A program made the position numbers and the translations under genes. The notes under the pieces are model-generated. The model searched no databases. It saw only the letters and a program-made list of their open reading frames with translations, and was not told the origin of the DNA. This document shows positions 1,295 through 18,081 of a stretch of 64,000 bases of DNA, in pieces. This stretch comes from Bacteroidales bacterium (GTDB taxonomy: Bacteria > Bacteroidota > Bacteroidia > Bacteroidales > FEN-979), in assembly GCA_014860625.1 (NCBI GenBank), contig JACZJJ010000022.1, positions 11,887 to 75,886 of the forward strand, given 5' to 3'. Numbering within the stretch: position 1 is the stretch's first letter; the number at the start of each line of letters is the position of its first letter.

Positions 1295-2776
1295 CGGCAA
1301 AACCCCACCCTTCTCCAGGTCAATACCCGCGTTTATCTCACTGAACTCTCCCGGAAGTTGAAACGTGGTACAACCCTCGACGACATCCCCGAAGAGGAGA
1401 TCGAAAGCTGGGCGAACGCTGGTTTTGACTGGATTTACATGCTCAGCGTCTGGCAAACCGGCGAAGCAGGAAGGCAGATCTCCCGGTCCAATTCGCAGTG
1501 GAGAAGAGAATTTGAGGAGACACTCGATGACCTGGAAGAATCCGATATCATCGGCTCTGGGTTTGCCATCAAAGAATATAAAGTAACCAGTTCGATCGGA
1601 GGAGCAGAGGCCCTGAAACGGCTGAGGGAGCGGATTGCCGGATATGGCATGAAGCTGATGCTCGATTTTGTGCCCAACCATATGGCCCCCGATCATCCCT
1701 GGGTAGAGAATCACCCCGATTTTTTCATCAGGGGAACAGAAGCAGACATCCTCCGGGCTCCTGAAAATTTCACATGGATAGACCGAACCCAGGGAGAGCT
1801 GGTTCTTGCCTATGGCCGCGACCCATATTTCTCGGGCTGGCCCGACACCATTCAACTGAATTATGGCAATGTTCACCTACAGGAAGCTATGAAGGAAGAG
1901 CTCCTGCAGATTGCTTCTCAATGTGATGGGGTGCGATGCGACATGGCAATGCTGCTACTCCCGGAAATCTTCGCAAACACCTGGAGTATCCGGGTCGAAC
2001 CTTTCTGGCCGGATGCCATTCAACGGGTAAAAAAGGATGTTCCCGGATTTGTGATGATGGGGGAGGTTTACTGGGACCTTGAGTGGGAGATGCAACAACA
2101 GGGCTTCGATTTTACCTACGACAAACGGCTATACGATCGCTTGCGTACCCTGGAAGCCACTCCGGTGCGCGACCACCTGAGGGCCGATATCAATTACCAG
2201 GAGAGACTGGCCCGTTTCCTGGAGAATCATGATGAACAGCGGGTTGCACGGGCATTTCCATGGGATCAGCATCAGGCGGCAGCCATTCTTACTTTCCTTA
2301 CACCCGGACTGAAGTTTTTCCACAAGGGTGAGTGTCAGGGAAAGAAGGTAAAAATCTCTCCCCATCTGGGACGTGGTCCAGTTGAAAAACCAAACAAAAT
2401 CACGGAAGCCTTCTATGCACAACTTCTCACACTCATAAAAAGACCTCTTTTTCATGAAGGGGAGTGGCAGCTTCTGGAATCTGTACCTGCCTGGGATGAA
2501 AATCAAACCAACCAGGATTTCATTGCTTTCTCATGGGAATATCAGGAATCGAAGGTCGTGGCAATCGTCAATTACGCCTCCTGCCAGGGGCAAGCATTGA
2601 TTCGACTTCCATTCGCAGAAATAGTGGGAGAGAGAGTCTCACTGAAGGAGATTTTCGTGGATAACATCTATCACCGTGACGGTACCGAACTGAATCAGCG
2701 CGGACTCTATGTTGACCTTCCCGGCTGGGGATACCACCTTTTTGAATTACGAATGACGAACCGGAGCGAAGCGTAG
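1274..2776 (+). CDS. GH13 alpha-amylase family glycosidase, no signal peptide
   Basis: DFVPNH, DGVRCDMAM, GEVYW, FLENHDE conserved regions. Confidence 0.88.
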   Translation: MRIANSERQNPTLLQVNTRVYLTELSRKLKRGTTLDDIPEEEIESWANAGFDWIYMLSVWQTGEAGRQISRSNSQWRREFEETLDDLEESDIIGSGFAIKEYKVTSSIGGAEALKRLRERIAGYGMKLMLDFVPNHMAPDHPWVENHPDFFIRGTEADILRAPENFTWIDRTQGELVLAYGRDPYFSGWPDTIQLNYGNVHLQEAMKEELLQIASQCDGVRCDMAMLLLPEIFANTWSIRVEPFWPDAIQRVKKDVPGFVMMGEVYWDLEWEMQQQGFDFTYDKRLYDRLRTLEATPVRDHLRADINYQERLARFLENHDEQRVARAFPWDQHQAAAILTFLTPGLKFFHKGECQGKKVKISPHLGRGPVEKPNKITEAFYAQLLTLIKRPLFHEGEWQLLESVPAWDENQTNQDFIAFSWEYQESKVVAIVNYASCQGQALIRLPFAEIVGERVSLKEIFVDNIYHRDGTELNQRGLYVDLPGWGYHLFELRMTNRSEA

Positions 2777-2836
2777 CTCGGCGAAGCCAATGAGGATTGA
2801 CGAATTTATATCCCTTATCCCGTATCGCGTATCATA
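2744..2836 (+). repeat. Heptamer arrays (GAATGAC-type, TATCCCG-type) with a nested 28-bp hairpin element
   Basis: GAATTAC GAATGAC GAA[CCGGAGCGAAGCGTAGCTCGGCGAAGCC]AATGAG GATTGAC; then TATCCCT TATCCCG TATCGCG TATCATA. Confidence 0.8.
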
Positions 2837-2848
2837 TTACAGAAGTTG

Positions 2849-2856
2849 TATATTTG
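2849..2856 (+). promoter_or_regulatory. Bacteroidota -7 promoter element for sufE
   Basis: TATATTTG matches TAnnTTTG, 21 nt before the ATG. Confidence 0.6.
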
Positions 2857-2877
2857 CAATCCAAAGTACTTTAACGT

Positions 2878-3309
2878 ATGACTATCTCTGAAATTGAAGC
2901 CGAAATTGTCAGTGAATTCTCCCTCTTCGAAGATTGGATGGATAAATACAATTACCTGATTGAGCTTGGGAAATCACTTCCGGTGATCGATCCGAAATAC
3001 AAAACGGAGCAGTACATCATCTCAGGTTGCCAGTCTCAGGTATGGCTTCATGCAGAGTACAGGGAGGGGAAGGTGGTTTATACGGCTGACAGTGATGCGA
3101 TTATCACGAAAGGAATCGTCAGTCTGCTCATCCGGGTGCTGGCGAATCAATCGCCGAAGGATATTGTGGAGGCCAACCTCGATTTCATCGATACGATAGG
3201 CCTTAGAGAACACCTCTCACCAACCCGCTCCAACGGCCTGAATTCTATGATCAAACAGATGAAACTCTATGCTGTGGTATTCCAGCAGAAGTATGGTGAA
3301 AGGTCATGA
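2878..3309 (+). CDS. sufE: SufE sulfur acceptor
   Basis: GCQSQVW, ADSDAIITKG, LSPTRSNGL. Confidence 0.95.
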   Translation: MTISEIEAEIVSEFSLFEDWMDKYNYLIELGKSLPVIDPKYKTEQYIISGCQSQVWLHAEYREGKVVYTADSDAIITKGIVSLLIRVLANQSPKDIVEANLDFIDTIGLREHLSPTRSNGLNSMIKQMKLYAVVFQQKYGERS

Positions 3310-3393
3310 AGTCATGAGGTCATGAGGTCATGACTGCCCACTGCCAACTGCCGACTGCCGACTGCCCACTGGCTACTGCCCACTGCCCACTGG
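3301..3393 (+). repeat. Octamer array (AGGTCATG)x4 abutting heptamer array (ACTGCCn)x8
   Basis: Fills the whole junction between convergent sufE and pspC and overlaps both stop codons. Confidence 0.92.
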
Positions 3394-3582
3394 TTCTTCC
3401 GGTACAATGATCCAGGCGATAATGTAGGCCAGGAGGCCCATCCCGCCGGCAAAAAACATCACAGCCCATAAAACCCTGAGCAAGACCGGGTCTACTTTGA
3501 AATATTCTCCTAGTCCGCCGCAGACACCACCGATGATCCTGTCTCTTCTTGAACGGTATAATCTTCTTAACTCTTCAGTCAT
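3373..3582 (-). CDS. pspC: PspC domain protein (69 aa)
   Basis: RRLYRSRRDRIIGGVCGGLGEYF...AYIIAWIIVPEE; start reassigned to MTEE. Confidence 0.88.
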   Translation of the reverse strand: MTEELRRLYRSRRDRIIGGVCGGLGEYFKVDPVLLRVLWAVMFFAGGMGLLAYIIAWIIVPEEPVGSGQ

Positions 3583-3703
3583 GATTTTTGGATTTTGGTT
3601 TAGGCCACGAAGATAAAAGGAATCGTTACACAGACCAAAACACCTATCGGTGAGTTGCCGGAAATCGTCGTTAAAATGGTTAATTTTGCAGAAAGAAGTA
3701 TTT

Positions 3704-4021
3704 ATGGACCTGAAAAAATTCGAAATGGAAAACAAGGTCATCTCTGCCCTGCGGCAGGTATATGACCCTGAAATACCGGTTAACATTTACGACCTTGGTT
3801 TGATCTACGATCTGCGACTGGACGATTCCTTCAATGTGAATGTCCTGATGACGCTCACTACACCCAATTGTCCTGTTGCCGAAGATATGCCCGGAATGGT
3901 GAAAAGTGAAATCAAGTTGATTGAAGGCATCGGGGAGGTGAATGTTGAGTTAACGTTCGAACCTCCCTGGGACATGGAAAAACTGACCGACGAAGCCAAG
4001 CTCGAACTCGGCATGCTCTAA
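3704..4021 (+). CDS. sufT: SufT/DUF59 Fe-S assembly protein
   Basis: VYDPEIPVNIYDLGLIY, MTLTTPNCPVA, FEPPW; TAATTTTG at 3681-3688 supports start 3704. Confidence 0.88.
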   Translation: MDLKKFEMENKVISALRQVYDPEIPVNIYDLGLIYDLRLDDSFNVNVLMTLTTPNCPVAEDMPGMVKSEIKLIEGIGEVNVELTFEPPWDMEKLTDEAKLELGML

Positions 4022-4064
4022 CCCGTCTAACTTGTCCAACTTGTCCAACTTGTCCAACTTTTCC
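4020..4064 (+). repeat. Nonamer array (AACTTGTCC)x3 plus two degenerate units
   Basis: Read directly; followed by TACCTTTG promoter element at 4066-4073. Confidence 0.88.
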
Positions 4065-4094
4065 CTACCTTTGTCTACCCAAAAACTCCAGCAC

Positions 4095-5993
4095 ATGACC
4101 CCTGCAATCGGGCCGTTATTAGCGAACATTGATTCACCCGACGATCTCAAGAAATTGTCTGTTGAGGAATTGCCGAAACTGTGTGATGAGATCCGTTCGC
4201 TGATCATTGATGTGATCTCTGTCAACCAGGGTCATCTGGGAGCTAGCCTGGGAACGGTCGACTTGGCTGTTGCGCTTCATTACGTGTTTGACACGCCCAA
4301 AGACAAAGTGATTTGGGATGTAGGGCATCAGGCTTATGCGCATAAAATTCTGACAGGAAGGAAAGGGATGTTCCACACCATCCGGATGTATAAGGGGATC
4401 AGTGGATTCCCCAAGATGTCGGAGAGTGAATACGATGCATTTGGGGTCGGTCACTCCTCCACTTCTATCTCCGCTGCCCTGGGGATGGGCGTTGCAGCCA
4501 GACTCAGCGGAAACGGTAATCATCATCAGGTAGCTGTGATTGGTGATGGAGCTATGACTGGCGGGATGGCCATGGAGGCTCTCAACAATGCAGGAGTATC
4601 CAATGCCAACCTGCTGGTTATTCTCAATGACAACCAGATCGCCATTGATAAAAATGTTGGTGCCATCAAAGATTACCTGGCTGATATTGTAACCAGCCGG
4701 ACATATAACAAAATCCGTGATAAGATATGGTTCCTCATGGGAGGTGGTACCAAATACGGGAAGAATTCCAGGGCCGTGGTCAAGCAGCTCGGAAATGCGG
4801 TAAAATCCTCCATTTTAACCCGCAGCAACCTGTTTGAAGCTTTTAACTTTCGCTATTTCGGTCCGGTTGATGGGAACGATGTCATCCGTCTCGTGAAGTT
4901 GTTGTCGGACCTCAAGGTTATTCATGGTCCGAAGTTGTTGCACTTGAGTACAGTCAAAGGAAAGGGGTTTGAGAAAGCCGAAAAGGACCAAACGAGTTAT
5001 CATGCTCCGGGTGTCTTTGACCGGACTACCGGCGTGATCAAGGAGGATAAATGCCACGGACTGGCTCCCAAGTACCAGACTGTTTTTGGCAGGACGATCA
5101 TCGAACTGGCTGAGAAGAATCCTAAGATAGTGGGAGTCACACCAGCTATGGCTTCAGGCTGTTCGCTCAATATTATGATGAACAAGATGCCTGACCGGGC
5201 TTTTGACGTGGGCATTGCCGAGCAGCATGCGGTCACCTTCTCGGCCGGATTGGCCACCGAAGGATATATCCCGTTTTGTAATATCTACAGTACATTTATG
5301 CAACGGGCTTATGATCAGGTTATTCACGATGTGGCCCTCCAAAAGCTGCATGTTGTTTTTTGTTTAGACCGGGGCGGACTTGTTGGAGAGGATGGCCCAA
5401 CTCATCATGGGGCATTTGACCTTGCTTATTTGCGCTGCATTCCCAACCTCATCGTGGCCTCACCATTGAATGAAGAGGAGCTTCGAAACCTGATGTATAC
5501 AGCTCAACATGATGGCATGGGGCCTTTCGCCATCCGCTATCCCAGGGGAAGAGGGGTGATGCCGCAATGGAAAACCGATTTTCGGCTTCTAAAACCCGGC
5601 GTCGGTAGGATGATCAGGGAAGGAAAAGAGATAGCGATACTCTCAATCGGTCATGTCGGAAATGAAGTGGTGAAAGCATGTGAAACGCTTGAAAAGGAAG
5701 GAGTATCAATTGCCCATGGGGATATGCGTTTCCTGAAGCCACTGGATGAAGAGCTTTTGCATGCAATTTTAAAAAGCTATAAAACTATTATCACGGTTGA
5801 AGACGGAACCATTATTGGGGGTCTTGGCAGTGCGGTGATTGAATTCATCAGTGAGCACAATTATGCAGCGAAGGTCAAACGTTTGGGCATCCCCGACCGG
5901 TTTGTTGGCCAGGGATCACCGGAAGATCTTTACCGGGAATGCGGATTCGACGCACATGGTATTGAAGAGGCTGTGAAAAGTATAAAATTATGA
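4095..5993 (+). CDS. dxs: 1-deoxy-D-xylulose-5-phosphate synthase
   Basis: WDVGHQAY, GDGAMTGG, DVGIAEQHAVT, DRGGLVGEDGPTHHG; start moved downstream of repeat and promoter. Confidence 0.96.
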   Translation: MTPAIGPLLANIDSPDDLKKLSVEELPKLCDEIRSLIIDVISVNQGHLGASLGTVDLAVALHYVFDTPKDKVIWDVGHQAYAHKILTGRKGMFHTIRMYKGISGFPKMSESEYDAFGVGHSSTSISAALGMGVAARLSGNGNHHQVAVIGDGAMTGGMAMEALNNAGVSNANLLVILNDNQIAIDKNVGAIKDYLADIVTSRTYNKIRDKIWFLMGGGTKYGKNSRAVVKQLGNAVKSSILTRSNLFEAFNFRYFGPVDGNDVIRLVKLLSDLKVIHGPKLLHLSTVKGKGFEKAEKDQTSYHAPGVFDRTTGVIKEDKCHGLAPKYQTVFGRTIIELAEKNPKIVGVTPAMASGCSLNIMMNKMPDRAFDVGIAEQHAVTFSAGLATEGYIPFCNIYSTFMQRAYDQVIHDVALQKLHVVFCLDRGGLVGEDGPTHHGAFDLAYLRCIPNLIVASPLNEEELRNLMYTAQHDGMGPFAIRYPRGRGVMPQWKTDFRLLKPGVGRMIREGKEIAILSIGHVGNEVVKACETLEKEGVSIAHGDMRFLKPLDEELLHAILKSYKTIITVEDGTIIGGLGSAVIEFISEHNYAAKVKRLGIPDRFVGQGSPEDLYRECGFDAHGIEEAVKSIKL

Positions 5994-6787
5994 ACCGAAT
6001 TGCAATCGTCACAGGCGCGTATGGTGCCATTGGCAAAGCCATCGTCCGGGGAATCGCAGAATACGGGATGGAGGTCATCCTGGTTGGGCGGGACGAAGCG
6101 AAGTTAAAGAAAACCATTCAAGAGGTCATGGACCTATTCCCTGATGCCGCTTTGGGATATGCTGCTGTGGATCTATCACGCGAACGGGAGATCCAGGCAT
6201 TCGCCGAAGCCTGGAAAGGACCTTTGCAAGTGCTGGTGAACAACGCTGCAAGTTGTCCCCGGGCCCGGACTGAAACACCTGAAGGAATCGAGATGCAGTG
6301 GGCAACCAATGTACTTGGGTATTATTGGATGATCAGGTATCTCTCCCCCCATATGAAGGAACAGAAGGATGCCCGGATTGTCAACGTGGCGAGTTACTGG
6401 GCAGGTGGGTTAACTTTCAGTGACCTTGAATTCAAGACAAGGTATTACGATAACGATGAATCCTACCGGCAATCGAAACAGGCAAACAGGATGCTGTCGG
6501 CCGGCTTCGCTACGAGGCTTAAAGGAGCCGGAACAGGAGTCAATGCATGCCATCCGGGCGATGTGGTTTCAAAAGTGAGCAGCGATCTGGGGTATGGTGG
6601 GAGTGACACTCCTGAACAGGGAGCCGACACCCCGGTTTGGCTGGCTACATCAACTGAAGCTGAGGGGAAAAGCGGTCACTATTTTGAACATAGGGAAAAA
6701 CGGCATTGCCCCTTTATGAACGATACCAAAGGTGTTGAACAGTTGATGGAAATATGTGAAGGTTATTCGGAAAAAAAGGCCGTATAG
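5990..6787 (+). CDS. SDR family NAD(P)-dependent oxidoreductase
   Basis: TGAYGAIG, LVNNAA, YRQSK, HPGDV. Confidence 0.88.
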   Translation: MNRIAIVTGAYGAIGKAIVRGIAEYGMEVILVGRDEAKLKKTIQEVMDLFPDAALGYAAVDLSREREIQAFAEAWKGPLQVLVNNAASCPRARTETPEGIEMQWATNVLGYYWMIRYLSPHMKEQKDARIVNVASYWAGGLTFSDLEFKTRYYDNDESYRQSKQANRMLSAGFATRLKGAGTGVNACHPGDVVSKVSSDLGYGGSDTPEQGADTPVWLATSTEAEGKSGHYFEHREKRHCPFMNDTKGVEQLMEICEGYSEKKAV

Positions 6788-7614
6788 GAGGTGATATACG
6801 TCCACTCTTCCGGCACAGGAAATTTGTTCGCCGTTTGAAAAAGGCCCGAAATTCCCTCTTCTCTGAGAGAGAGATCAAAATGGGCAATCGCAATTCCAAG
6901 ATCAATCCGCTGAAGGTCTACTGTTTTATAGGACTCTTTTACCACCTTATTCCGTGCAAGGAAAAAGTGAAACTGCTTTCCCTCCTTGATAATACGCCAG
7001 GGCTGGGCATTGTTGGCTGATGGGGCAATCCGGACCATTTCCAGGGCGTTGGCAAAGATGCCCGCCGCCTCCTTCGTCAATGGCTTGGAAAGCGTTCTGT
7101 CGAAAAAAAGTTCCGACCACTCTTTCCTGCTTTTCGAGCGTGCAAGATATTTAATCACTCTCTCCCTAAATCCCTGCTTTTCGCCAGGAAATCCGATGGG
7201 CGTTATTGCCGGGATGATCTCCCCATCGTGAAATGTCGTGGTTTTGGCATACTCACTCCGGCGGAATGTACCGCCGATCCAACAGGTACCCAATCCCATC
7301 CGGGTGAACTGAATTATTTTTCGCTCCAACACATAGCCGTAATCCTCCATGTTCAAATGAGCACCCTTGGTTACCGTTCCGGCGATGATATACCGTAGTC
7401 CACTGATAAAACCATAGGTTCCCAGCTTTACTGGTTCGTTGCGGTAAGATTCGGAATCAATTAACCAAAACCGACACATGTTCCCAAAAGGACCCTCATT
7501 TTCGGTCGTCAGAATATCAAAGATTTCTGACAACTTTTTGCCAGGGAGTTCATGGGATGAGTATTTTCTGATTGAAGTCCTTGCCTTGATCGCTTCGGTC
7601 GTATGACGATTCAT
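6763..7614 (-). CDS. Nitroreductase family protein
   Basis: RTSIRKY, GLGTCWIGG, RIAPSANNAQPW. Confidence 0.85.
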   Translation of the reverse strand: MNRHTTEAIKARTSIRKYSSHELPGKKLSEIFDILTTENEGPFGNMCRFWLIDSESYRNEPVKLGTYGFISGLRYIIAGTVTKGAHLNMEDYGYVLERKIIQFTRMGLGTCWIGGTFRRSEYAKTTTFHDGEIIPAITPIGFPGEKQGFRERVIKYLARSKSRKEWSELFFDRTLSKPLTKEAAGIFANALEMVRIAPSANNAQPWRIIKEGKQFHFFLARNKVVKESYKTVDLQRIDLGIAIAHFDLSLREEGISGLFQTANKFPVPEEWTYITSYTAFFSE

Positions 7615-7650
7615 CTGAGTTGCCCTGATTGAAGTAGCAAATATACCAAA

Positions 7651-10600
7651 TTAGTATACGACGAGCTTCTTTATGCAGATGACATTCTCAGCCGCTACTC
7701 TGACAATGTATATCCCGGGAGTCCGTTTCGAAACATCCACCTGGTATTCATTGTTTCGGGATAGATTTTCGAAGGTTTCGCTGCTAACGACAGAGCCGCG
7801 GAGGTCTATCAGGTCGATACTGCCCCGGCCATCCATGGTTTGCGGCATCGTGATGTAAACTTTGTCGGATGTTGGATTGGGGAAGATATGAATCCCTTCA
7901 GAGGCCATTCCGTCTTCTTCAATACCTGCACATATGTTTACGTGGATAAACTTTTTTTTGTGCATGCTCTGTGTATGTTCTCCGTCGGAAATTGTCAGCA
8001 TGACATCGTAAAGTCCGGAAACAGGATACTGCACAGTTGGATTCTTTTCTTCCGAGGTTTCGGGGACTCCTCCCGGAAATTCCCATTGCCAGGACGTTAC
8101 ATTGTCGAACGAGTCGTCGATGAACTGCACGCTGTGCCATTGACAGATATGGGTTGTATCAGCATGGAAATAGGGGAAGGGGCCATCGATGTTTACTTCC
8201 AGGAAGTCGAGATACCGTTTGAATAAGATAGATTTTCGAGAAGGGGGTTCTCCATTGACGAGGTGGCCGAATTCCTTAAAGGTACCGATGGTTTTATAAA
8301 CCGGTCCGGCATAGCCGAACTCTAGACATCTGGGAGGGTTATCCATATTGTTCATCAGGGAAAATCCGTCTCCTTTCGGGATGACTTCAAAGATCGCATA
8401 TGGGGAGGATCCAAGATAGATGTAGTCCATCCCTTCAGTAATGGTTCCATCTACTCCCTCCATATCGTTGAAATAGTAAACGCTCACTCGTTGTGTTGAA
8501 AACCGGAACATCTCCTCAAGCATTTTTGCGGTCCCGTAATACCAGGAGGCATAGCTTTCCATGTATACATTACCTCCGTTGTTCAGGTAGTTGATCAGCT
8601 GATTGGTCTCTGTCGTTGAGAGAGCATAAGATCCGGGATAGGCTGTGCCCAGAATAAGGAAGGCGACAGGATACGTTGTCAAATTCTCAGGGATGGAGGA
8701 GAACTGGTCATATCCGACCTGCAGGCTGTCCATCAGGTGAGTCATCAGGGCCACTGATGTTGTGGAAGAGGTGAGGTTGATCAACGCTACAGGACGGCCT
8801 CCCATCGGAAGTGTGCAAGGATGAATGATCTCAATTGACGACCCATTGGATATCAACAATTCCAGGTTTGTCAAATGTCCGGGAGGTGTACTGCGCGAAG
8901 ATCTCACTGTGAATATTGCATGATAGATAGCCTTTTTACCCAATGTACCTGCAGGAAGTGTGGGAGAGGAGAGGATCTCAAAGAACTCATCCTCTGAGGA
9001 AAGAGTGACGCTTAATTCCTCAGCGGGGAGACTTCCCAGATTGGTAAGTGTGAATGCCAGATCGGCAGTCTCGCCGGCATCCAGCAATGCATTGACACCA
9101 TCCTGAACTTCCATACCGGAAACCTTAAGTTCGATGGCAGATACATCCAGAAAAAACCGATACTCCCAGCTATCCCAACCAGAAGTTGCAACAATGCGAC
9201 AAGGCAGGGAGGTCTGATCAGGGAGCTCAGATTGTACCATAAAGTTAAAAACATCCGAAAGTTCAATGGATTGACCAGCTGCTAACGTTGTGGTTGATAC
9301 GGTACTGTCTGTAATCATCAGCTCAGCCTCATTGCAGTAAAATTTCAGTGTGATCTCTCCCAGTTGATCAGGCGAGATATTGGTCACTTCAAGATTTAAA
9401 GAAGCGGGCTCCCCATGCTGCAGATAGCCCGAATTACTAACTAACTCTTGCCTGATGGTCAATCCTGATGAGAGTTGGAAATGCTTTTCGGTACTCATTC
9501 TCTGCTCGTCGGTTACTCGTACAGCAAGGTCATAGATGGTGCTTTCGTCGGCTCCGGAAATTGCAAGAAGTCCCTGGGGTGAGAGATCAACTGTTAAAGG
9601 TTTTGCAGGGGGGACCCATTTAATGGAATTTCCATATTCGGCATCCAGGTCGAAGATGGGGTGAATCAGGGTATTTTGTTTCTCTCCGGAAGAGAGCCCA
9701 CTCCAGACAATCAGGCTGTTTGGTTCCAGTACAGCAGGGCCGAAGCAGAACGATACTTCACCATTTGGGAAGAGGGTGGCACCAAACTCTACCCTTGTCT
9801 GTTGTTCATGACCAAGAAGAGAGAGTTGCCAGCGGAATCTCACAGAATCTGGAGAGGACGTCATCCATATTCCGTCACCATCAGACAAGCGAATCACAAA
9901 GTCCCATGAAAAGGCGGGAACGATGGCGGAGATATAACCAAACATGTCTGTGGCGCTGCAGAGATAGGGATAAGGGATATGCTCATCCGTAAAATGGATC
10001 ATTCCGTAGGAGTTGACATAAATGGTATCAAAGAGATTTCCAAAAAAAGGAAATTCAAAGGGTAAAGCAACAGTTGCATATGGTTTCCCGGAGCTCTGCG
10101 GAGTAACCTGCTGGCCTTCAAAAGGATTGTATTCAGCGTTTTCTGTTATTTTTTGATAGGGTTGATGAAGAAGCCAGGAATAGGGTGATACTCCACCCTG
10201 AGATTGAAACTGTACCGAATAATTTCCTGATGAGGTGAATGGTGGTAACTCCTCGTTCAGGATCACAGGGAGGTCACAGTCTGCAATGCCTGTAGCCGAC
10301 AAAACCGTAGTTCCATGGTGGTTAATTGTAGTTTCTGTTGGGTTGCAGGGAAAGATGTGGGTAGAGGCCCCGTAGTGGATAAAAGAGGCTTCATGAATTA
10401 TTCCCTGACCTGAATTCAAGGGGTCACGCTCCTCAATGATCAGGAAAAACCTGGCAGGAACACCTGGTTCAATATAACTCAGAAGCGGGGTTACATCTAT
10501 CCCGAACTCCAGCCTGCTTTGTTCAAACACAGAATCAAATCCCTGCATGTAAAGTGGTCCGCCCTGATTCGAAAAAATAGTTGATTGCAACAGATTATCG

Positions 10601-11724: not shown

Positions 11725-11757
11725 CTCGATTTGAATTTAAAAAGTATCTGTATATAT

Positions 11758-11784
11758 GACAAGGCGATCTGGTGAAAAGTTGCT
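11758..11784 (-). promoter_or_regulatory. Putative ECF-type promoter for the C1 protease gene
   Basis: GCAACTTTTCACCAGATCGCCTTGTC resembles GCAACCTTTTTACCAGAT upstream of the ECF gene at 44716. Confidence 0.4.
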
Positions 11785-11874
11785 TTAAATTGTTAACTAA
11801 ATATCCAACATAATTAACCGAACGAATTTACGTTTTTTTACTTTTGCCAATTATCCATATATCTAAAAGATCAG

Positions 11875-12729
11875 ATGTTTCGTCGATTCGTGCTCCTTAT
11901 TGCAACTGTATCGCTGATTTTGACAAATTATTCCTGTCATGAAGCAGATTCCCAGAGGGTGGCTGTCAATTGGTGGGATTCACTTCAAAAGGTGGAAGCT
12001 GATTCTCTGGCATTGGCACCGCTGGTACGGGAGCTGCAATATTTATTATCGAAAAACAGCATCGATCCCACAACTACCAGTTACCTGATCATTGACGATA
12101 CGGAGGATAATCCTGTGGTATTGGCTGAGTATCGCTCAAACCAGTTGCTGATCCCGGCTTCGGTCCAAAAAATTCTCGTTACAGCCGCCGCCCTGGAAAT
12201 ACTGGGAGACAAAGCGAAAAAAGATGTTTACAGGTGCAATCTTCAGAGTCACAACGGGCTGGCTAATAAGTTATTGAAGGATATAGGCAAGAAGGTGTAC
12301 GGTTCCCGCACCTATTCCAACGGCATCAGGGCTGTACTAAATTTCTGGGAAAAAAAAGGGGTGGACATGACCGGTGTTCAGATGGCCGACGGCAGTGGTC
12401 GACGGTATGATAATTTCCTGACCGCACGTCAGCTGGTTGATATCCTCTCTTACCAAACCACAGCACCGACTTTCGGAACTTTCTACAGCTCCCTTCCTCT
12501 GGCGGGCATCTCCGGCACATTGCGCAACACCCTTAAGGGAACCATCGCTGAGGGAAAGATACGGGCCAAAACGGGTACACTTGCTGCCGTTAAAACATTG
12601 ACGGGGTATGCATCTACCGTTTCCGGGCGTAAGCTCATTTTTGCTATCATTGTAAATAATTACACGTGCCGAAATTCGACATTAAAGAAATATATGGATC
12701 GTGTACTTGTTGAAATGATAAAGTTGTAA
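11875..12729 (+). CDS. dacB: Compact D-Ala-D-Ala carboxypeptidase/endopeptidase (S13, PBP4-like)
   Basis: PASVQK (SxxK), SHN (SxN), DGSG, AKTGTL; TACTTTTG at 11839-11846. Confidence 0.8.
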   Translation: MFRRFVLLIATVSLILTNYSCHEADSQRVAVNWWDSLQKVEADSLALAPLVRELQYLLSKNSIDPTTTSYLIIDDTEDNPVVLAEYRSNQLLIPASVQKILVTAAALEILGDKAKKDVYRCNLQSHNGLANKLLKDIGKKVYGSRTYSNGIRAVLNFWEKKGVDMTGVQMADGSGRRYDNFLTARQLVDILSYQTTAPTFGTFYSSLPLAGISGTLRNTLKGTIAEGKIRAKTGTLAAVKTLTGYASTVSGRKLIFAIIVNNYTCRNSTLKKYMDRVLVEMIKL

Positions 12730-12742
12730 GCCGAAAGAGGGA

Positions 12743-14536
12743 ATGATCATACCCGGAGTTATTGCTGTTGTGAAGATCTGGTTCAGGAGGCTTCCTGAAT
12801 GGATGATTGAAAAGCTGGGAGATAACACCTTCCTGATTCTTGCCAGTATCGTGGTAGGGATCATCTCCGCACTGGCAGCTGTTGTCCTCAAAATCTTTGT
12901 GCGTTTCATGCATGGAGTTCCCGACTACTTCCTGAAGATTAATCACACGCCGTTCCTTTACCTTCTTTTTCCGCTTGTAGGTATCCTGCTGACGGTTCTT
13001 TTTGTTCAGCTGTTTTTGAAGGGGAATCTGGAAAGAGGGTTGGGAAGTATCATTTTCTCTATCCTGAGGAAGTCATCCTATGTTGATCGCAGCAAAACAT
13101 ACACACCCATTATCACCAGCGGAATCACTGTTGGATTGGGTGGATCGGCCGGTTTGGAAGCGCCGATTGTAGCCAGTGCTTCAGCCATTGGTGCCAATAT
13201 CGCTCAGGCTCTGCGGCTGGGTTATAAAGAACGGACCCTGTTGCTTGCATGCGGAGCGGCATCCGGAATTGCTGCCATCTTCAACAGCCCCATTGCAGGC
13301 GTGATCTTCGCGGTAGAAGTGCTGCTGATTGATCTGTCGGTTCCCCTCTTTATCCCCCTGTTAATTTCAACAGCCACAGCAACCATTCTCTCCAAACTTC
13401 TTTACTCAGGACAACTCTTTTTCCTGATAACCACCGAATGGTTTTTACCGGCTTTGCCATACTATATCCTCCTGGGCATCCTTTGCGGTTTTGTGTCGGT
13501 CTATATGACACGAACAACACTTCAGATTGAAGGGTGGTTTGATGCCCGAAAACAAACATGGACCAAGGCTTTGCTGGGAGGACTGGCACTCAGCCTGATG
13601 ATTTTTCTTTTCCCGCCACTCTATGGTGAGGGATACACCACCATCACAAGTCTGTTAAATGGCAGCTACCAGGACATCGTTACTGAAAGTTTCCTTTTCT
13701 CCTGGGCCGAATCCCCCTGGGTACTGATTGCCTTTGGGGGAACCATCATCCTGATCAAAGTAATCGCCACATCGTTTACCCTGGGAGCAGGGGGAAATGG
13801 AGGAATTTTCGCCCCTTCACTGTTTACCGGGGCTATGACCGGCTTCACCCTTTCATTTGCCTTAAACACCCTTGGCATGACCCGGTTGCAGGTGTCTAAT
13901 TTTGTTGCAGTGGGTATGGCTGGTATCATGGCCGGAGTGGTTCATGCACCACTGACTGCCATCTTCCTCATCGCTGAAATTACAGGGGGATATATGCTTT
14001 TCGTGCCGCTGATGATCGTAGCGGCAATCTCCTTTTTTATCAGCAGGTACTTTGAACCCTATTCAATCTATACCAAGAACCTGACGAACAAAGGGTACCT
14101 GATGGCCGACAGCAAAGACAAGAATATCCTGAACCAACTTCGGCTTGATGATATGATCGAGACCGGATTCGTTGCGCTAAAGGCGCATGACAACCTTGGA
14201 ACATTGATCAATGCATTTACCGAGAGCCAGCGGAATATCTTTCCGGTTGTGGACGACAACAACCTTTTCATTGGCGTGGTCCATCTTGCCGAAGTCAAAA
14301 AGTTGATGTTCAGGACGGAACTGTACAATGAAGTGACCATTTTTGAACTCACCAACAAAGAGATCATGACACTTGATGTCACAGAAGATGTGGCATCGGC
14401 CCTGATGAAGTTTGAAAATTCAGATCTTTGGAATATACCGGTGGTAGATAAAGGGAAGTACATTGGTTTCATCTCCCGCTCAAATATGCTCTCCTATTAC
14501 AGAAAGATACTGAAGAAGTCGGCCACACTTTTTTGA
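12743..14536 (+). CDS. ClC chloride channel/transporter with CBS pair
   Basis: GGSAGLEAP, GIAAIFNSPIAG, GGIFAPSLF; C-terminal CBS domains. Confidence 0.92.
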   Translation: MIIPGVIAVVKIWFRRLPEWMIEKLGDNTFLILASIVVGIISALAAVVLKIFVRFMHGVPDYFLKINHTPFLYLLFPLVGILLTVLFVQLFLKGNLERGLGSIIFSILRKSSYVDRSKTYTPIITSGITVGLGGSAGLEAPIVASASAIGANIAQALRLGYKERTLLLACGAASGIAAIFNSPIAGVIFAVEVLLIDLSVPLFIPLLISTATATILSKLLYSGQLFFLITTEWFLPALPYYILLGILCGFVSVYMTRTTLQIEGWFDARKQTWTKALLGGLALSLMIFLFPPLYGEGYTTITSLLNGSYQDIVTESFLFSWAESPWVLIAFGGTIILIKVIATSFTLGAGGNGGIFAPSLFTGAMTGFTLSFALNTLGMTRLQVSNFVAVGMAGIMAGVVHAPLTAIFLIAEITGGYMLFVPLMIVAAISFFISRYFEPYSIYTKNLTNKGYLMADSKDKNILNQLRLDDMIETGFVALKAHDNLGTLINAFTESQRNIFPVVDDNNLFIGVVHLAEVKKLMFRTELYNEVTIFELTNKEIMTLDVTEDVASALMKFENSDLWNIPVVDKGKYIGFISRSNMLSYYRKILKKSATLF

Positions 14537-14750
14537 TTTCCGAATAATTCGATTTTCGAATTGATAAGATTCAGTGCTTAACCCTATATCTGTTTTTAGG
14601 TAGGACCAAATCCTACGATAAAAGAACCTTTGATGGGGAACATTGCGAGTTTGAACTCGAGTTCCGGATCAAGGAGTTGCGCGATCAGGTGAAGGAATTT
14701 AATTGATCAACAAGGAAGATATTCCGACAAACAGCATTTTTCACTATTTT

Positions 14751-14778
14751 GCTTCCCGCTTCCCGCTTCCCGCTTCCC
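14751..14778 (+). repeat. Heptamer array (GCTTCCC)x4
   Basis: Four perfect units just downstream of the ABC transporter stop. Confidence 0.9.
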
Positions 14779-14789
14779 GCTACCTTCCC

Positions 14790-16613
14790 CTATACAAACG
14801 TTTGCAAATCAAACAGCTTCCTGTATACGCCGTTTCGTGCGTGAAGCTCGGCGTGTGATCCCCGCTCTACCAGGTTGCCACTTTGAAGTACGATGATCTG
14901 GTGGGCATGCTGGATGGTGGAAAGACGGTGGGCAATCACGATAGAGGTACGATTCTTCATCAGGTTCTCAAGAGCCTGTTGCACCAGCCGTTCCGATTCG
15001 GTATCCAGCGCTGAAGTGGCTTCATCGAGGATGAGGATGGGCGGGTTTTTCAGGACGGCACGGGCAATGCTCAGACGCTGTCGCTGACCGCCTGAAAGTT
15101 TGATGCCACGGTCACCAATGTTGGTGTAATAGCCTTCCGGCATCCGGATGATAAATTCGTGGGCATTCGCTACTTTGGCTGCTGAGATGACCTCCTCCTC
15201 GCTGGTGTTCTCTTTCCCGAAGGCGATATTGTTGAACACGGTATCGTTGAACAGTATGGTCTCCTGAGATACAATCCCCATCAGCCCCCTCAGGTCGTCA
15301 ATGATCATATCGCGGATCGGGATCCCGTCGATGCGGAGTTCGCCATCTGCAATGTCGTAAAATCGGGGAAGCAGATCCACCAGGGTAGATTTGCCACCTC
15401 CGGAGGGGCCAACAACCGCGATTGTCTTTCCCTTTTCAATCACCAGGTTGATGTGGCTTAGCACCGGTTCGGCAACGTACCGGAAAGAGACATCCGCGTA
15501 TTCAATCCGGTCGGTAAACTCTTTCTTTGGAATTGCATTCACCTTCTCTTCAATGATCTCAGGCTCATCCAGCACCTGTTTGATCCTGTCCATCGAAGCA
15601 GCCCCTTTCTGAACATTGTAATAGGCTTGCGTGATTGATTTTGCAGGAGGAATTACCTGTGAGAAGATGGTGATGTAGACCAGAAACACGGCGGCATCCA
15701 GGCTATGTTCGGGAGCCATCACCAACCTTCCGCCATACCATAAGAGGATGGTCAATACCACAGCACTCAGGAATTCACTCAACGGAGAGGCGAGATCCCG
15801 TTTACGATAGAGCCTGACCATGATCCTGAAAAAGTGATTGTTCGTCTCTTTGAAGCGGTTATCCGCAAAGTTAATAGCGCTGAAGGCCTTGATGATCCGA
15901 AGGCCGGAGATGGTCTCCTCGATTACTGCAAGGAGTTCCCCCATCTTTTTTTGTCCTTTGGCGGAGGTACGTTTCAGGCTTTTTCCAATCCGTCCGATGA
16001 TTAACCCGCTAACCGGGAGGAGGATCATGACAAAAATAGTCAGTTGCGGACTGATCACAAACAGGGTTACAACAAAAACGATGATCTGGATCGGATCCCG
16101 GAAGATCATCTCCAGGGAGCTCATGATCGAAATTTCCACCTCCTGCACATCGGCCGTCATCCTGGAAATGATATCTCCTTTTCGTTGTTCGGAATAGTAA
16201 CCGAGTGGAAGGATCAGGATTTTCTTGTAGAGGTCGTCGCGGAGGTCTTTCACAACCCCGTTACGAACCACTGCCAGGAAAAACATTGCCAGGTAGCGGA
16301 AAAGGTTTCGGAAAAAGAAAAGCACAATGATAGCAACCCCGATATATACCAGCACCTCGTCTTCACCATAGTTCCGGATAAGCTGGCCGAAGAAATGGTA
16401 GAAGTTCTCCTTAAGTGAGTCCATGTTGGTCCAGATCAGCGGACCGGCTGTTTCAGGAATCTCAGCCGTTTTGAACAACATCTGGAGGATCGGGATAAAG
16501 AGTGCGAAGGAGACAAGCGAAAATAAAATAGAGAGGATATTGAACAACGCGTTCAGAGCTGCAAAGAGCCAGTAATTGCGAATGTAGTGGAAGATTTTAA
16601 TGAGGCTTTTCAT
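14790..16613 (-). CDS. MsbA-like ABC exporter (TMD plus NBD)
   Basis: GPSGGGKST, LSGGQRQR, LILDEATSALD; start reassigned to MKSLIKIF. Confidence 0.9.
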   Translation of the reverse strand: MKSLIKIFHYIRNYWLFAALNALFNILSILFSLVSFALFIPILQMLFKTAEIPETAGPLIWTNMDSLKENFYHFFGQLIRNYGEDEVLVYIGVAIIVLFFFRNLFRYLAMFFLAVVRNGVVKDLRDDLYKKILILPLGYYSEQRKGDIISRMTADVQEVEISIMSSLEMIFRDPIQIIVFVVTLFVISPQLTIFVMILLPVSGLIIGRIGKSLKRTSAKGQKKMGELLAVIEETISGLRIIKAFSAINFADNRFKETNNHFFRIMVRLYRKRDLASPLSEFLSAVVLTILLWYGGRLVMAPEHSLDAAVFLVYITIFSQVIPPAKSITQAYYNVQKGAASMDRIKQVLDEPEIIEEKVNAIPKKEFTDRIEYADVSFRYVAEPVLSHINLVIEKGKTIAVVGPSGGGKSTLVDLLPRFYDIADGELRIDGIPIRDMIIDDLRGLMGIVSQETILFNDTVFNNIAFGKENTSEEEVISAAKVANAHEFIIRMPEGYYTNIGDRGIKLSGGQRQRLSIARAVLKNPPILILDEATSALDTESERLVQQALENLMKNRTSIVIAHRLSTIQHAHQIIVLQSGNLVERGSHAELHARNGVYRKLFDLQTFV

Positions 16614-16616
16614 TGT

Positions 16617-16668
16617 CGCAAAGTTAGAATAATTGATGGATAACTCAGTAACATAACGTAACTTTGCG
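16617..16668. promoter_or_regulatory. Divergent pair of TAACTTTG -7 elements (ABC exporter and rbfA)
   Basis: TAACTTTGCG on both strands, each ending 4-5 nt before an ATG. Confidence 0.65.
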
Positions 16669-16670
16669 AG

Positions 16671-17024
16671 ATGGAATCTACGCGTCAGCAAAAAATCTCC
16701 AGACTCATTCAAAAAGACCTTGGAATCCTTTTTCAGCAACTCGGAAAGGATTTGTTCGAAGGTGCCATGATTACGGTCACCAAAGTCTATGTCTCCAAGG
16801 ACCTCTCTGTAGCCAAAGTTTTTCTGAGCCTCTTCGCTACGAAAGACAAAGTGGCTCTGATGGAGAAAATTCACCATCACGTCAGGGAGATGCGCCACCT
16901 CCTGGCACAACGAACCAAGCATCAGCTGCGGGTGGTGCCCGAACTGCACTTTCTGGAAGATGATTCCCTGGATTATATTGAAAACATTGATAACCTATTG
17001 CACGACCCTCATGATAAACCCTGA
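16671..17024 (+). CDS. rbfA: Ribosome-binding factor A
   Basis: MESTRQQKISRLIQKDL, SKDLSVAKVFLS, LRVVPELHFLEDDSLDY. Confidence 0.95.
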   Translation: MESTRQQKISRLIQKDLGILFQQLGKDLFEGAMITVTKVYVSKDLSVAKVFLSLFATKDKVALMEKIHHHVREMRHLLAQRTKHQLRVVPELHFLEDDSLDYIENIDNLLHDPHDKP

Positions 17025-17025
17025 T

Positions 17026-17078
17026 GTAGAGACGGGGCATGCAATTCCCTGTACAGACGGGGCATGCCCCGTCTCTAC
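17026..17078. repeat. GTAG-type REP-like palindrome (one and a half copies)
   Basis: GTAGAGACGGGGCATGC...GTACAGACGGGGCATGCCCCGTCTCTAC. Confidence 0.8.
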
Positions 17079-17099
17079 GGGATTAAACGACAAACGTAA

Positions 17100-17978
17100 A
17101 TGCAATACGATCCCATAAAACGCTCCCTCGGCTCAATTTTCAACAGAACACCATGGCTGCGGATCCTCTTTTACCACTTGCTTGATCTTCTGCTGCTGCG
17201 CACATGGCATGTGAAAAAGGCACTGAGACAGTGGGGAAAGAAACAGGAAAAAGGCTCAGGGCACAGAGCTCAGGGCACAGAAACATCCAGTCATCCAGCA
17301 ACCAGCGACCAGCAACAAGCCTCCCGGATCCTCGACGCCGGCTCCGGCTTTGGACAATACAGTTACTTCCTCTCACGCATGAGCCGTAGCCTGATGGTTG
17401 ATGCCGTGGATGTGAAGGAAGAGCAGATCGCCGACTGCAACCGGTTTTTTACATCCATCGGAAGATCCAATGTGCATTTCAGCGTTGCTGACCTGACAAC
17501 ATTCTCTAAACCAGCGACCTATGAACTGATCCTCTCCGTGGATGTGATGGAACACATTCTTGAAGATGAAGCCGTGTTCAGAAATTTTCACGCATCCCTG
17601 AAACCGGGAGGCATGGTGTTGATATCGACTCCTTCCGACCAGGGCGGGTCTGACGTGCACGATCATGATGAAGAGGAGTCGTTTATTGATGAACATGTAA
17701 GGGATGGATACAACATACAAGAGATTCAGGAAAAACTGAAACGCGCCGGGTTCGGGAAGACCGAAGCGCACTTCACTTACGGAAAGCCGGGTCAAACTGG
17801 CTGGAGACTCTCGATGAAGTATCCAATCAAGATGCTCAATGCCAGTAAACTCTTTTTCATCCTATTGCCGTTCTATTACCTGCTTACATTTCCATTTGCC
17901 CTGCTGTTCAATGCGTTTGATTTGTGGGGAAAGCATAAAACCGGGACAGGCCTGATTGTCAAAGCCTGGAAAGAGTGA
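17100..17978 (+). CDS. Class I SAM-dependent methyltransferase with repeat-derived insert
   Basis: ILDAGSGFG, DVMEHI, LKPGG. Confidence 0.88.
   Translation: MQYDPIKRSLGSIFNRTPWLRILFYHLLDLLLLRTWHVKKALRQWGKKQEKGSGHRAQGTETSSHPATSDQQQASRILDAGSGFGQYSYFLSRMSRSLMVDAVDVKEEQIADCNRFFTSIGRSNVHFSVADLTTFSKPATYELILSVDVMEHILEDEAVFRNFHASLKPGGMVLISTPSDQGGSDVHDHDEEESFIDEHVRDGYNIQEIQEKLKRAGFGKTEAHFTYGKPGQTGWRLSMKYPIKMLNASKLFFILLPFYYLLTFPFALLFNAFDLWGKHKTGTGLIVKAWKE
17253..17324 (+). repeat. In-frame composite array (GGCACAG-type, AGTCATCC-type, AGCAACC-type)
   Basis: Encodes GSGHRAQGTETSSHPATSDQQQAS immediately before SAM motif I. Confidence 0.85.
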
Positions 17979-18081
17979 GATAGTGAGCTCGTGAAATGGT
18001 GAACCGGAGCGAAGCGAAGCTCGGCGGAGCCAAATGGTGAAAGTCTGGATTTTATTTCGTATTTCGTAATTCGTAATTCTT
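17975..18081 (+). repeat. Octamer array with nested 28-bp element, then heptamer array (AwTTCGT)
   Basis: GTGAGATA GTGAGCTC GTGAAATG GTGAA[CCGGAGCGAAGCGAAGCTCGGCGGAGCC]AAATG GTGAA; ATTTCGT x2 AATTCGT AATTCTT. Confidence 0.85.

Follow-up and report, generated by a model that had tools for sequence, protein, structure and literature searches.

A GC-rich 28-nt sequence that occurs twice in a 64,000-nt stretch of the Bacteroidales bacterium assembly GCA_014860625.1 (contig JACZJJ010000022.1, positions 11,887 to 75,886; referred to as the window) is, together with an adjoining AA, probably a non-autonomous mobile insertion of 30 bp, which can be described as a very small dispersed repeat of Bacteroidales. 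The 30-bp block is added base-precisely and in one orientation at 5'-..G-A-A^A/T-T..-3' (the caret marks the point of insertion), different lineages carry different sites, and unoccupied orthologous sites persist. An earlier interpretation of the window made from its letters alone (the sequence-only reading) had proposed a very small mobile element, and the dispersal of the copies, their fixed junction and the empty sites support that proposal. The window is part of contig C70 of the source assembly (G000; 3.77 Mb, 171 contigs, 96.8% complete).

Two copies in short tandem arrays

Copy 1 (CCGGAGCGAAGCGTAGCTCGGCGAAGCC; window 2761-2788, + strand) and copy 2 (CCGGAGCGAAGCGAAGCTCGGCGGAGCC; 18004-18031, + strand) are identical at 26 of 28 positions, with mismatches at positions 14 and 24; copy 1 differs from the family consensus, CCGGAGCGAAGCGGAGCTCGGCGGAGCC, at two positions (T-14 and A-24) and copy 2 at one (A-14). 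Direct reading confirmed that both are bordered by AA on either side, and also that removal of the element with one AA brings back the period of the host, as the sequence-only reading had stated. At site 1 the flanks are GAATTAC GAATGAC GAA before the element and its AA, and TGAG GATTGAC GAA after them, so that excision of the 28+2 bases gives GAATTAC GAATGAC GAATGAG GATTGAC with a period of 7. At site 2 they are GTGAAATG GTGAA before and ATG GTGAAAGT after, and excision gives GTGAAATG GTGAAATG GTGAAAGT with a period of 8. The AA that completes the 30-bp insertion can be assigned at site 1 to 2789-2790 or equivalently to 2759-2760, which are indistinguishable, and at site 2 to 18032-18033 or equivalently to 18002-18003 (all + strand).

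Both host arrays are short (about 4-5 units) and imperfect. The first, of the GAATTAC/GAATGAC type with period 7, occupies 2744-2805 (+ strand) and is split into 2744-2760 and 2791-2805; the second, of the GTGAAATG/GAAATAGT type with period 8, occupies 17969-18042 (+ strand) and is split into 17969-18003 and 18034-18042. Tandem Repeats Finder (TRF) agreed with the direct reading: once all 24 copies in the genome had been excised, a called array spanned both junctions, with 4.6 copies of the unit at the first and 5.5 at the second, each at 80% matches. A pattern search for the element gave 2 matches in the window and 0 in each of 100 dinucleotide-preserving shuffles.

Occupied and empty orthologous sites

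The congeners used for comparison are different species whose flanking genes are about 70-80% identical in DNA. The empty sites that the sequence-only reading called for exist in these relatives at both window sites and at three further loci. The sharpest insertion case is the pyruvate kinase gene on contig C115, which is 1437 nt long in G000 and 1401-1407 nt long in seven of seven congeners. A single 30-nt in-frame block (a copy with five mismatches plus AA) stands between the codons for ..VDGD and TVICEV.. in the B domain and is absent from all seven orthologues. The flanks of this block, ..ATGGTGAC and AAACGGTGA.., resemble those of copies in GGTGAAAT arrays over 7-9 nt on each side. The copy on C160 falls in the linker within an aconitase-family protein; its G007 counterpart has diverged, and in G005 exactly the 30 bases are absent. 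At C58, too, the element is present in G007, and G005 has an array without it.

At site 1 of the window, the same gene is followed in G007 and G002, at the corresponding place, by uninterrupted GAATTRC/GAATGAC arrays, G005 and G008 have an unrelated small repeat and the remaining recovered loci have other arrays, the 28-mer being present in none of the nine orthologous loci recovered. At site 2 the element occupies the same position in G007, where the orthologous copies differ at three positions; G008, G003 and G010 have GGTGAAAT-type arrays without the element, and G005 and G006 are without such an array. For the copy in the ATPase domain of a histidine kinase on C41, one paralogue in G008 has a copy and a second has a strongly diverged version of it.

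G005, with 22 copies of its own, has none at the five G000 sites examined, and G007 has the element at three of those five; insertion therefore took place both before and after the species split and independently in different lineages. In the three insertions shared with G007 (window 18004-18031, G000:C58:37149 and G000:C160:46019; orthologues L048, L222 and L229), changes from the consensus number 1 in 84 positions in G000 versus 10 in 84 in G007 (p = 0.009). The G007 copies have thus decayed by about 12%, and the flanking arrays have diverged in both lineages.

Junction and array preference

At up to six substitutions from the consensus there are 24 copies in G000, eight of them identical to it, and the units of their host arrays include GAATTAC, GGTGAAAT, GCGAAAA, CCCGAAA, GGATCCC, GGAAATTA and GAAATAC. 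Short-period arrays are plentiful in this genome: TRF called 2648, with 1035 of period 7 and 391 of period 8, and 1.64% of the bases lie in arrays of period 5-10 once these are merged. When every copy was excised in silico with two bases and TRF was rerun, 19 of the 24 junctions fell inside a called array, where 1.64% would be expected from bases and 2.18% from GAAW sites (2116/97,047); relative to GAAW sites the binomial p is about 1e-27. The five junctions outside called arrays are on C49, C105, C115, C136 and C144, most of them in degenerate arrays and that on C115 in unique coding sequence.

Flanks were profiled over 138 unique copies, pooled from this genome, from relatives (12 copies) and from the 111 listed matches of a collection scan. 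The collection copies were retrieved with a degenerate pattern of the element, which biases their internal variation and leaves their flanks unbiased. Position -3 is G in 78%, positions -2 and -1 are A in 99% each, positions +1 and +2 are A in 99% and 96%, position +3 is A in 43% or T in 53% (A/T in 96%) and position +4 is T in 61%. Loss of the AA flanks in other copies, which the sequence-only reading had named as a refutation, did not occur. The orientation relative to GAA^AW is the same in all copies. By a strict criterion about half of the 138 copies lack array flanks, and outside G000 many lie not in arrays but in other small repeats, always as ..AA^AA... Host arrays of eight or more unrelated unit types have the junction at the identical base, as do non-array contexts, which have nothing but GAA and AAW in common. 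The proposal that the element targets arrays therefore holds for G000 as a strong preference, although the target is the short motif G-A-A^A/T-T and not arrays as such.

A phase test with the period left free was indecisive about the size of the added block: removal of one, two or three flank bases fitted 55, 59 and 45 of the 138 copies (at ≥85%), about equally well because of the A runs. The orthologous empty sites were therefore used, and they give 30 bp. As to the AA duplication suggested by the sequence-only reading, AA stands on both sides and 30 bp are added; a 2-bp duplication is indistinguishable from an AA carried by the element itself. Copies in G000 also favour the coding strand (20 of 23; of the GAAW sites that arrays offer, 59.7% are so oriented; p = 0.009), a crude estimate as genes were called as stop-free open reading frames (ORFs). 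In other genomes the orientation judged from 270-nt flanks was 78 versus 46, a weak bias from a method too crude to be relied on.

Two pairs of same-strand copies, at G000:C121:44556-44629 and G000:C120:9594-9665, occupy neighbouring units of one array each, with 18 and 16 nt between the members; both copies of the C120 pair are in frame within one protein, in different reading frames. At G000:C28:37955-37972 (- strand) there is an 18-nt form, CCGGAGCGAAGCGGAGCC, with one 10-nt unit fewer and the usual GAA and AA flanks, which is what slippage between the internal CGGAGC repeats would give. A search of G000 for half or split copies that might hint at a larger parent yielded only this deletion form and a degenerate neighbour on C49, the rest being chance 14-mers with two mismatches. 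Two same-strand copies on C12 are 1.26 kb apart, and the possibility of a transposase between them was rejected as the intervening ORFs are gene fragments.

The arrays of this genome hold other small repeats. A modular repeat, AGTAAGTCCCCTTYAGGGGATTTAGGGGT, is far commoner than the 28-mer, with 132 copies in G000 at up to four substitutions; it often occurs in double form or in nested combination with further GC-rich hairpin modules. A member of this type is the small repeat at the site 1 orthologue (L033 in G005 and L039 in G008), in the array that holds the 28-mer in G000; the arrays therefore take more than one kind of small insert.

Distribution

With up to three mismatches the element was found in 13 of 41 sampled genomes, G000 included, and a reversed-pattern control gave no match in the 41. 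Nine of the ten other genomes of the genus are positive, with 1 to 22 copies each, and three more genera of the family have one positive genome each; 16 genomes of the order that represent 16 other families are all negative. One congener, G010 (94% complete), lacks the element, as do 12 of the 24 other genomes in the family. Four genera have an identical consensus. When one genome per species was scanned with an exact pattern, at least 111 stretches matched, and the 80 titles listed are all of Bacteroidota metagenome-assembled genomes (MAGs), naming Bacteroidales, Rikenellaceae, Prolixibacteraceae, Prevotellaceae, Salinivirgaceae and Draconibacterium; such MAG titles are loose and we claim no family range from them. 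Arrays like GGTGAAAT and GAATTAC are recurrent hosts in many of the genomes. A scan of viral contigs gave no match, and in plasmid and phage collections the sole matches were at chance level (E about 0.5), from GC-rich taxa that are unrelated. No Rfam family overlaps the element, and no paper turned up when the literature was searched in full text for its 18-mers from either strand.

Two particular contexts were noted among these matches. In a MAG titled Prevotellaceae (L127:110-400) a tandem repeat of about 52 nt has the 28-mer in one unit and a shortened form in the next, and this composite unit recurs on several contigs of that MAG. In six MAGs (L105, L109, L135, L138, L140 and L162) a TTCTTCG...CGAAGAA inverted repeat is followed by the element and then by AAAATCAAT; in L138 this context is upstream of an ORF starting MKTIAITAGG, judged by eye to be a candidate Ddl-like gene. 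The shared context could be either an old conserved insertion or a hot spot.

Composition of the element

Taken with its 5' AA, the inserted 30-mer consists of three 10-nt units, AACCGGAGCG, AAGCGGAGCT and CGGCGGAGCC. CGGAGC occurs three times at a spacing of 10 nt (positions 2-7, 12-17 and 22-27), and there are three GCGNAGC heptamers, at positions 6-12, 11-17 and 21-27, the first and last near the ends of the element. The consensus starts with CCGG and ends with AGCC. Terminal inverted repeats are absent, as the 5' CCGGAGC compares with GGCTCCG for the reverse complement of the 3' end, and the repeats at the ends are direct. According to a 2026 review (PMC13037366), this heptamer forms an extraordinarily stable mini-hairpin, with GCGAAGC melting at 76.5 °C and staying folded in 7 M urea; the same source describes it as nuclease-resistant and as found at single-strand priming sites, including those of phage and plasmid.

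Internal variation was examined in an unbiased set of 29 unique copies from G000 and its relatives. The most variable positions are 24 (eight changes), 17 (seven) and 14 (four), and 34 of the 41 changes are transitions. Positions 14 and 24 are the free N of a GCGNAGC motif, and position 17 closes the middle heptamer, which overlaps the first, so that either of these two could be spared. This pattern is in line with the mini-hairpin motifs and is suggestive only; copies without both 5' heptamers are not depleted (two observed, about two expected).

Copies within genes

Eleven of the 24 copies in G000 lie inside long ORFs, 10 of them on the ORF strand and spread over nine ORFs (one has two copies), and about 10 of the 24 are in frame in genes with Pfam domains, essential genes among them. 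The domains flank or span the insert in pyruvate kinase, an aconitase-family protein, a HemN-like radical SAM protein, a tricorn-type protease, an alpha-2-macroglobulin-like protein and an APH/RapZ_C protein (the one with two copies). The same is seen in the histidine kinase, where the insert at residues 599-608 is within HATPase_c (549-678), and in NadE, where it lies between CN_hydrolase and NAD_synthase. In DnaX all Pfam domains found are N-terminal of the insert, and an ORF on C82 has no Pfam match. The antisense copy, on C7, is upstream of a glycosyltransferase domain, possibly before the true start codon. The sense frames used read PERSGARRSQ (four), NRSEAELGGA (four) and GAKRSSAEP (three); as all three are in use, DNA and not peptide is the unit of propagation. 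The consensus has no stop codon in six frames, a property shared by 64.5% of shuffles of its own composition and by 4.7% of 30-mers of genome composition. Its length of exactly 10 codons and the lack of a stop in any frame allow it to be tolerated in frame in protein loops and linkers.

In the window, copy 1 lies at the 3' end of an alpha-amylase-family ORF of 500 amino acids (1274-2776, + strand; from an ORF scan, PF00128, E 5e-14). This ORF reads through the array and ends at a TAG (2774-2776) inside the copy, a stop that is due to the T-14 variant. sufE follows at 2878-3309 (+ strand; PF02657, E 1e-46), and directly after it, at 3300-3392, four copies of GAGGTCAT abut about nine CTGCCCA-type heptamers; arrays like these recur on many contigs of G000 and its congeners. 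Copy 2 lies between ORFs identified by ORF scan and Pfam, a methyltransferase (17100-17978, + strand), which ends 25 nt before it, and an FtsX/MacB-like permease (18084-19319, + strand), which starts 52 nt after it.

Proposed mechanism and evidence against it

We propose that the element may move as single-stranded DNA, since a 30-bp duplex circle is physically implausible and the sole recognisable features of the sequence are single-strand mini-hairpin motifs. Arrays would multiply the target word and could expose slipped-out single strands, which would account for the array preference. A trans-acting, sequence-specific enzyme would recognise the element, cut and join, and such recognition would account for an identical consensus in four genera despite the decay of individual old copies. 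The flanking AA could have arisen by duplication of 2 bp, or could be a dinucleotide shared in cleavage or crossover, as is the case in HUH or core-dinucleotide recombination. A more radical idea, which we consider rather unlikely, is that the element represents a new class of minimal mobile DNA, in which a nuclease-resistant GCGNAGC mini-hairpin oligonucleotide would be stitched into slipped-out array strands, mostly in sense and probably into the lagging-template strand, by a novel enzyme or as a fragment that survives DNA turnover and anneals at forks. If this is true, a single-stranded 30-nt element would be altering the loops and linkers of proteins across Bacteroidales in steps of 10 residues.

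Several results, concerning the copies, their folding and the candidate enzymes, weigh against mobility of this kind. No movement event was seen directly, and several of the G000 copies are old, being common to G007 or G008. No empty allele was present in the contigs of three metagenome runs of one study (X1-X3, one of which may be the source), but contigs drop rare variants, so that this tells nothing for or against; X1 contigs bridge both window sites and an X2 contig bridges site 2, with the element in place in all. The orientation of G000 copies relative to GC skew is unbiased (11 versus 8). Nearest-neighbour folding as DNA is at -3.9 to -4.9 kcal/mol (z +0.2 to +0.7), with 110-152 of 200 shuffles at least as good, and RNA folding, at about -9 kcal/mol (z -0.15 to +0.35), is no better than shuffles. 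Covariation among candidate stem positions gave no associated pair (positions 8 and 17, odds ratio 0.94), and an association of positions 17 and 24 was rejected as support for a stem, with p = 0.008 among 21 tests and the two not forming a pair. The term hairpin in the sequence-only reading has to be narrowed, as there is no ordinary long stem and there are three GCGNAGC mini-hairpin motifs. The stability of GCGNAGC is described as lying outside conventional thermodynamic models (PMC13037366), and because such models miss it the folding result is not decisive against the mini-hairpins.

The candidate enzymes do not follow the element either. Y1 HUH proteins (PF01797) were found in 6 of 13 genomes with the element and in 26 of 28 without it, Y2/IS91 proteins (PF04986) in 7 of 13 and 7 of 28, and matches to the REP-associated tyrosine transposase (RAYT)-like protein of G000 (on C15) in 10 of 13 and 17 of 28, those elsewhere being mostly distant paralogues. 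G013, which is 98% complete and has six copies, has none of the Y1, RAYT-like and Y2 genes, and G005, with its 22 copies, has just a weak Y1 fragment and partial Y2 pieces. G000 has no match to RVT_1 (PF00078), IS110 (PF01548), the TnpB zinc ribbon (PF07282) or IS630 DDE_3 (PF13358), in an assembly from which a contig may be missing and in which repeated insertion sequence (IS) copies often remain unassembled. No parent IS with matching ends was found in G000 by PF01797, PF04986, PF01548, PF07282, PF13358 or PF00078, and the transposase loci that were examined contain nothing resembling the 28-mer. A nuclease or HUH transposase, which the sequence-only reading suggested looking for, was thus not found in association with the element, so that its description as non-autonomous comes from its size only; any particular enzyme is far less probable as the mover than the proposed explanation as a whole.

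The two candidate genes of G000 have features of their own. The RAYT-like HUH gene at G000:C15:15152-15637 (L183; 162 amino acids, HVHGII motif) is followed by two GTAG-tagged palindromes, gtagagacggggcatgccccgtct, the core 16-mer of which occurs 29 times in G000; this is a classical REP/RAYT pair (REP, repetitive extragenic palindrome), separate from the coexisting 28-mer family. The IS91-like Y2 ORF at G000:C163:1301-2230 (- strand; 309 amino acids) matches profile positions 1-39 and 129-179 only, and thus has an internal deletion of 40-128; before it lies the 3' end of a tyrosine-recombinase gene. A Y1 gene 2.2 kb from a copy in G016 was rejected as a mover, as cytochrome-oxidase genes intervene and there are no shared repeats.

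Alternative explanations

The principal alternative, possible in our view though unlikely, is that the 28-mer is an enzyme-free passenger of array instability, copied by template switching, ectopic gene conversion or annealing of a nuclease-resistant fragment at the fork, with reliance on short homology between arrays of similar units. Copying of this kind would fit the extreme array preference (19 of 24), the recurrence of GGTGAAAT-like and GAATTAC-like hosts in many genomes, the insertion into unique sequence of the pyruvate kinase gene, with 7-9 nt of array-like flank to either side, and the fact that no transposase family follows the element. It would also fit the nuclease resistance ascribed to GCGNAGC DNA (PMC13037366) and the difference between 1/84 changes in G000 and 10/84 in G007, which suggests homogenisation or turnover in one lineage. 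However, the same exact junction recurs outside arrays and with eight or more unrelated types of unit, where 3-4 bases of homology per side would not single out this sequence, and the identical consensus in four genera fits recognition of the element itself. Ragged or half copies would be expected from enzyme-free copying and were not found, the nearest being one 10-nt internal deletion and one degenerate neighbour. An improbable alternative is a functional host motif kept by selection, either a protein site that reads three CGGAGC on one helix face or a single-strand signal as at primase-dependent origins. The 10-nt period of CGGAGC, the consensus common to four genera, the G000 copies of old insertions that are still at consensus and the mini-hairpins described at phage and plasmid priming sites (PMC13037366) would all agree with this, but about 10 of 24 copies are in coding sequences of unrelated enzymes (pyruvate kinase, NadE, DnaX, histidine kinase and others), the orthologous copies in G007 have decayed by about 12%, and G010 and 12 of 24 other family genomes do without the element. 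A terminator is disfavoured by the lack of a strong stem and by A, not T, after the element, and selection on a host motif leaves the arrival of copies unexplained.

Quite improbable, too, is an atypical element of REP type or of IS200/IS605/IS91 type moved by an HUH enzyme, for which the RAYT-like protein on C15, with its HVHGII motif, and the IS91-like ORF on C163 would be the candidates. HUH enzymes of the IS200/IS605 kind act on single-stranded hairpin substrates and insert by a short target word, without duplication and in one orientation; the insertion words of IS91 are GAAC/CAAG, and in the present case GAA^C stands at the left junction and CAA^W at the right. The single orientation of all copies relative to GAA^AW is compatible with such insertion, while the AA on both sides would fit it either with or without a duplication. 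Against such an enzyme, the RAYT-like gene is flanked by a different, GTAG-type palindrome of its own, the distribution of Y1, RAYT-like and Y2 genes is not that of the element (as in G013 and G005), the consensus has neither a GTAG or CGTC tag nor a palindrome, nothing like the 28-mer is found at transposase loci, and the Y2 ORF of G000 lacks profile positions 40-128. Chance similarity or an assembly artefact can practically be dismissed, given the absence of matches in window shuffles and to the reversed pattern in 41 genomes, and the presence of the element in contigs of three separate runs and in at least 111 stretches of other assemblies.

Comparison with known repeats

[quoted passage not shown] The 28-mer has the features of this type in its size, its dispersed copies (24 in G000 and up to 22 in congeners), its precise junction and its empty sites. 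Elhai and colleagues reportedly distinguished eight SDR families of 21-27 nt, which nest in other repeats. SDR5 is described as a 21-nt module at a fixed point of the HIP1 octamer, of unknown function and origin (from papers citing Elhai et al. 2008, Genome Res 18:1484), and among HIP1-rich cyanobacteria SDR-like repeats are reported by one source as not found outside Nostocaceae (PMC5861425). We claim a likeness in kind and none by descent. The 28-mer belongs to another phylum, appears unrelated in sequence and has as its target GAA^AW in arrays of 7-8 bp rather than the HIP1 palindrome. It also differs in being a threefold 10-nt repeat with GCGNAGC motifs that is frequently in frame in genes.

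Other systems share fewer properties with it. Rickettsia palindromic elements are described as selfish and, like the 28-mer, in frame in unrelated genes, where their peptide is tolerated (PMC10969869), but they are about 150 bp long and palindromic with a CGTC end (PMC3733652) and have a conserved peptide, whereas the 28-mer adds 30 bp, is non-palindromic and uses three frames. REPs and their REPIN doublets are likewise short (20-40 bp) dispersed repeats, thought, as those accounts have it, to move single-stranded through a trans-acting gene (PMC3116915; PMC3733652). They are, however, GTAG/CGTC-tagged palindromes, mostly extragenic, often in inverted doublets and flanking a RAYT gene, none of which applies to the 28-mer; GTAG occurs in it internally only, in the minority T-14 variant, and not at its ends. 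MITEs are non-autonomous and dispersed, with a fixed short flank repeat (here AA) and the possibility of in-frame fusions (PMC10969869), but they have terminal inverted repeats that match an IS; the 28-mer has no such repeats and no parent IS was found for it. The long simple sequence repeats with units of 5-11 nt, including heptamer arrays, are the class of the host arrays and not of the 28-mer, which is not a slippage product of its host array; the same sequence is found in arrays of many units. MITEs are typically 50 bp or longer. The 28-mer family is new for Bacteroidales and for its phylum; it is not a new category, because the cyanobacterial SDRs are a precedent.

Significance

The element is one of the smallest mobile DNA elements known. 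To our knowledge, the cyanobacterial SDRs are essentially the one earlier description of mobile elements as small as 20-30 bp, and a further, apparently unrelated family from a different phylum means that tiny mobile repeats are not a cyanobacterial oddity. With its clean empty sites, sharp target and recognisable motif it is a tractable case for finding the machinery involved. The 28-mer is also a simple marker for comparing Bacteroidales MAGs, in which its copies are likely to be break points of short-read assembly. Tandem arrays that serve as landing pads tie the heptamer and octamer arrays of these genomes to very small dispersed repeats, and the element is a source of exact 10-residue insertions in housekeeping enzymes, as in the B domain of pyruvate kinase, the ATPase domain of a histidine kinase and the linkers of NadE and an aconitase-family protein.

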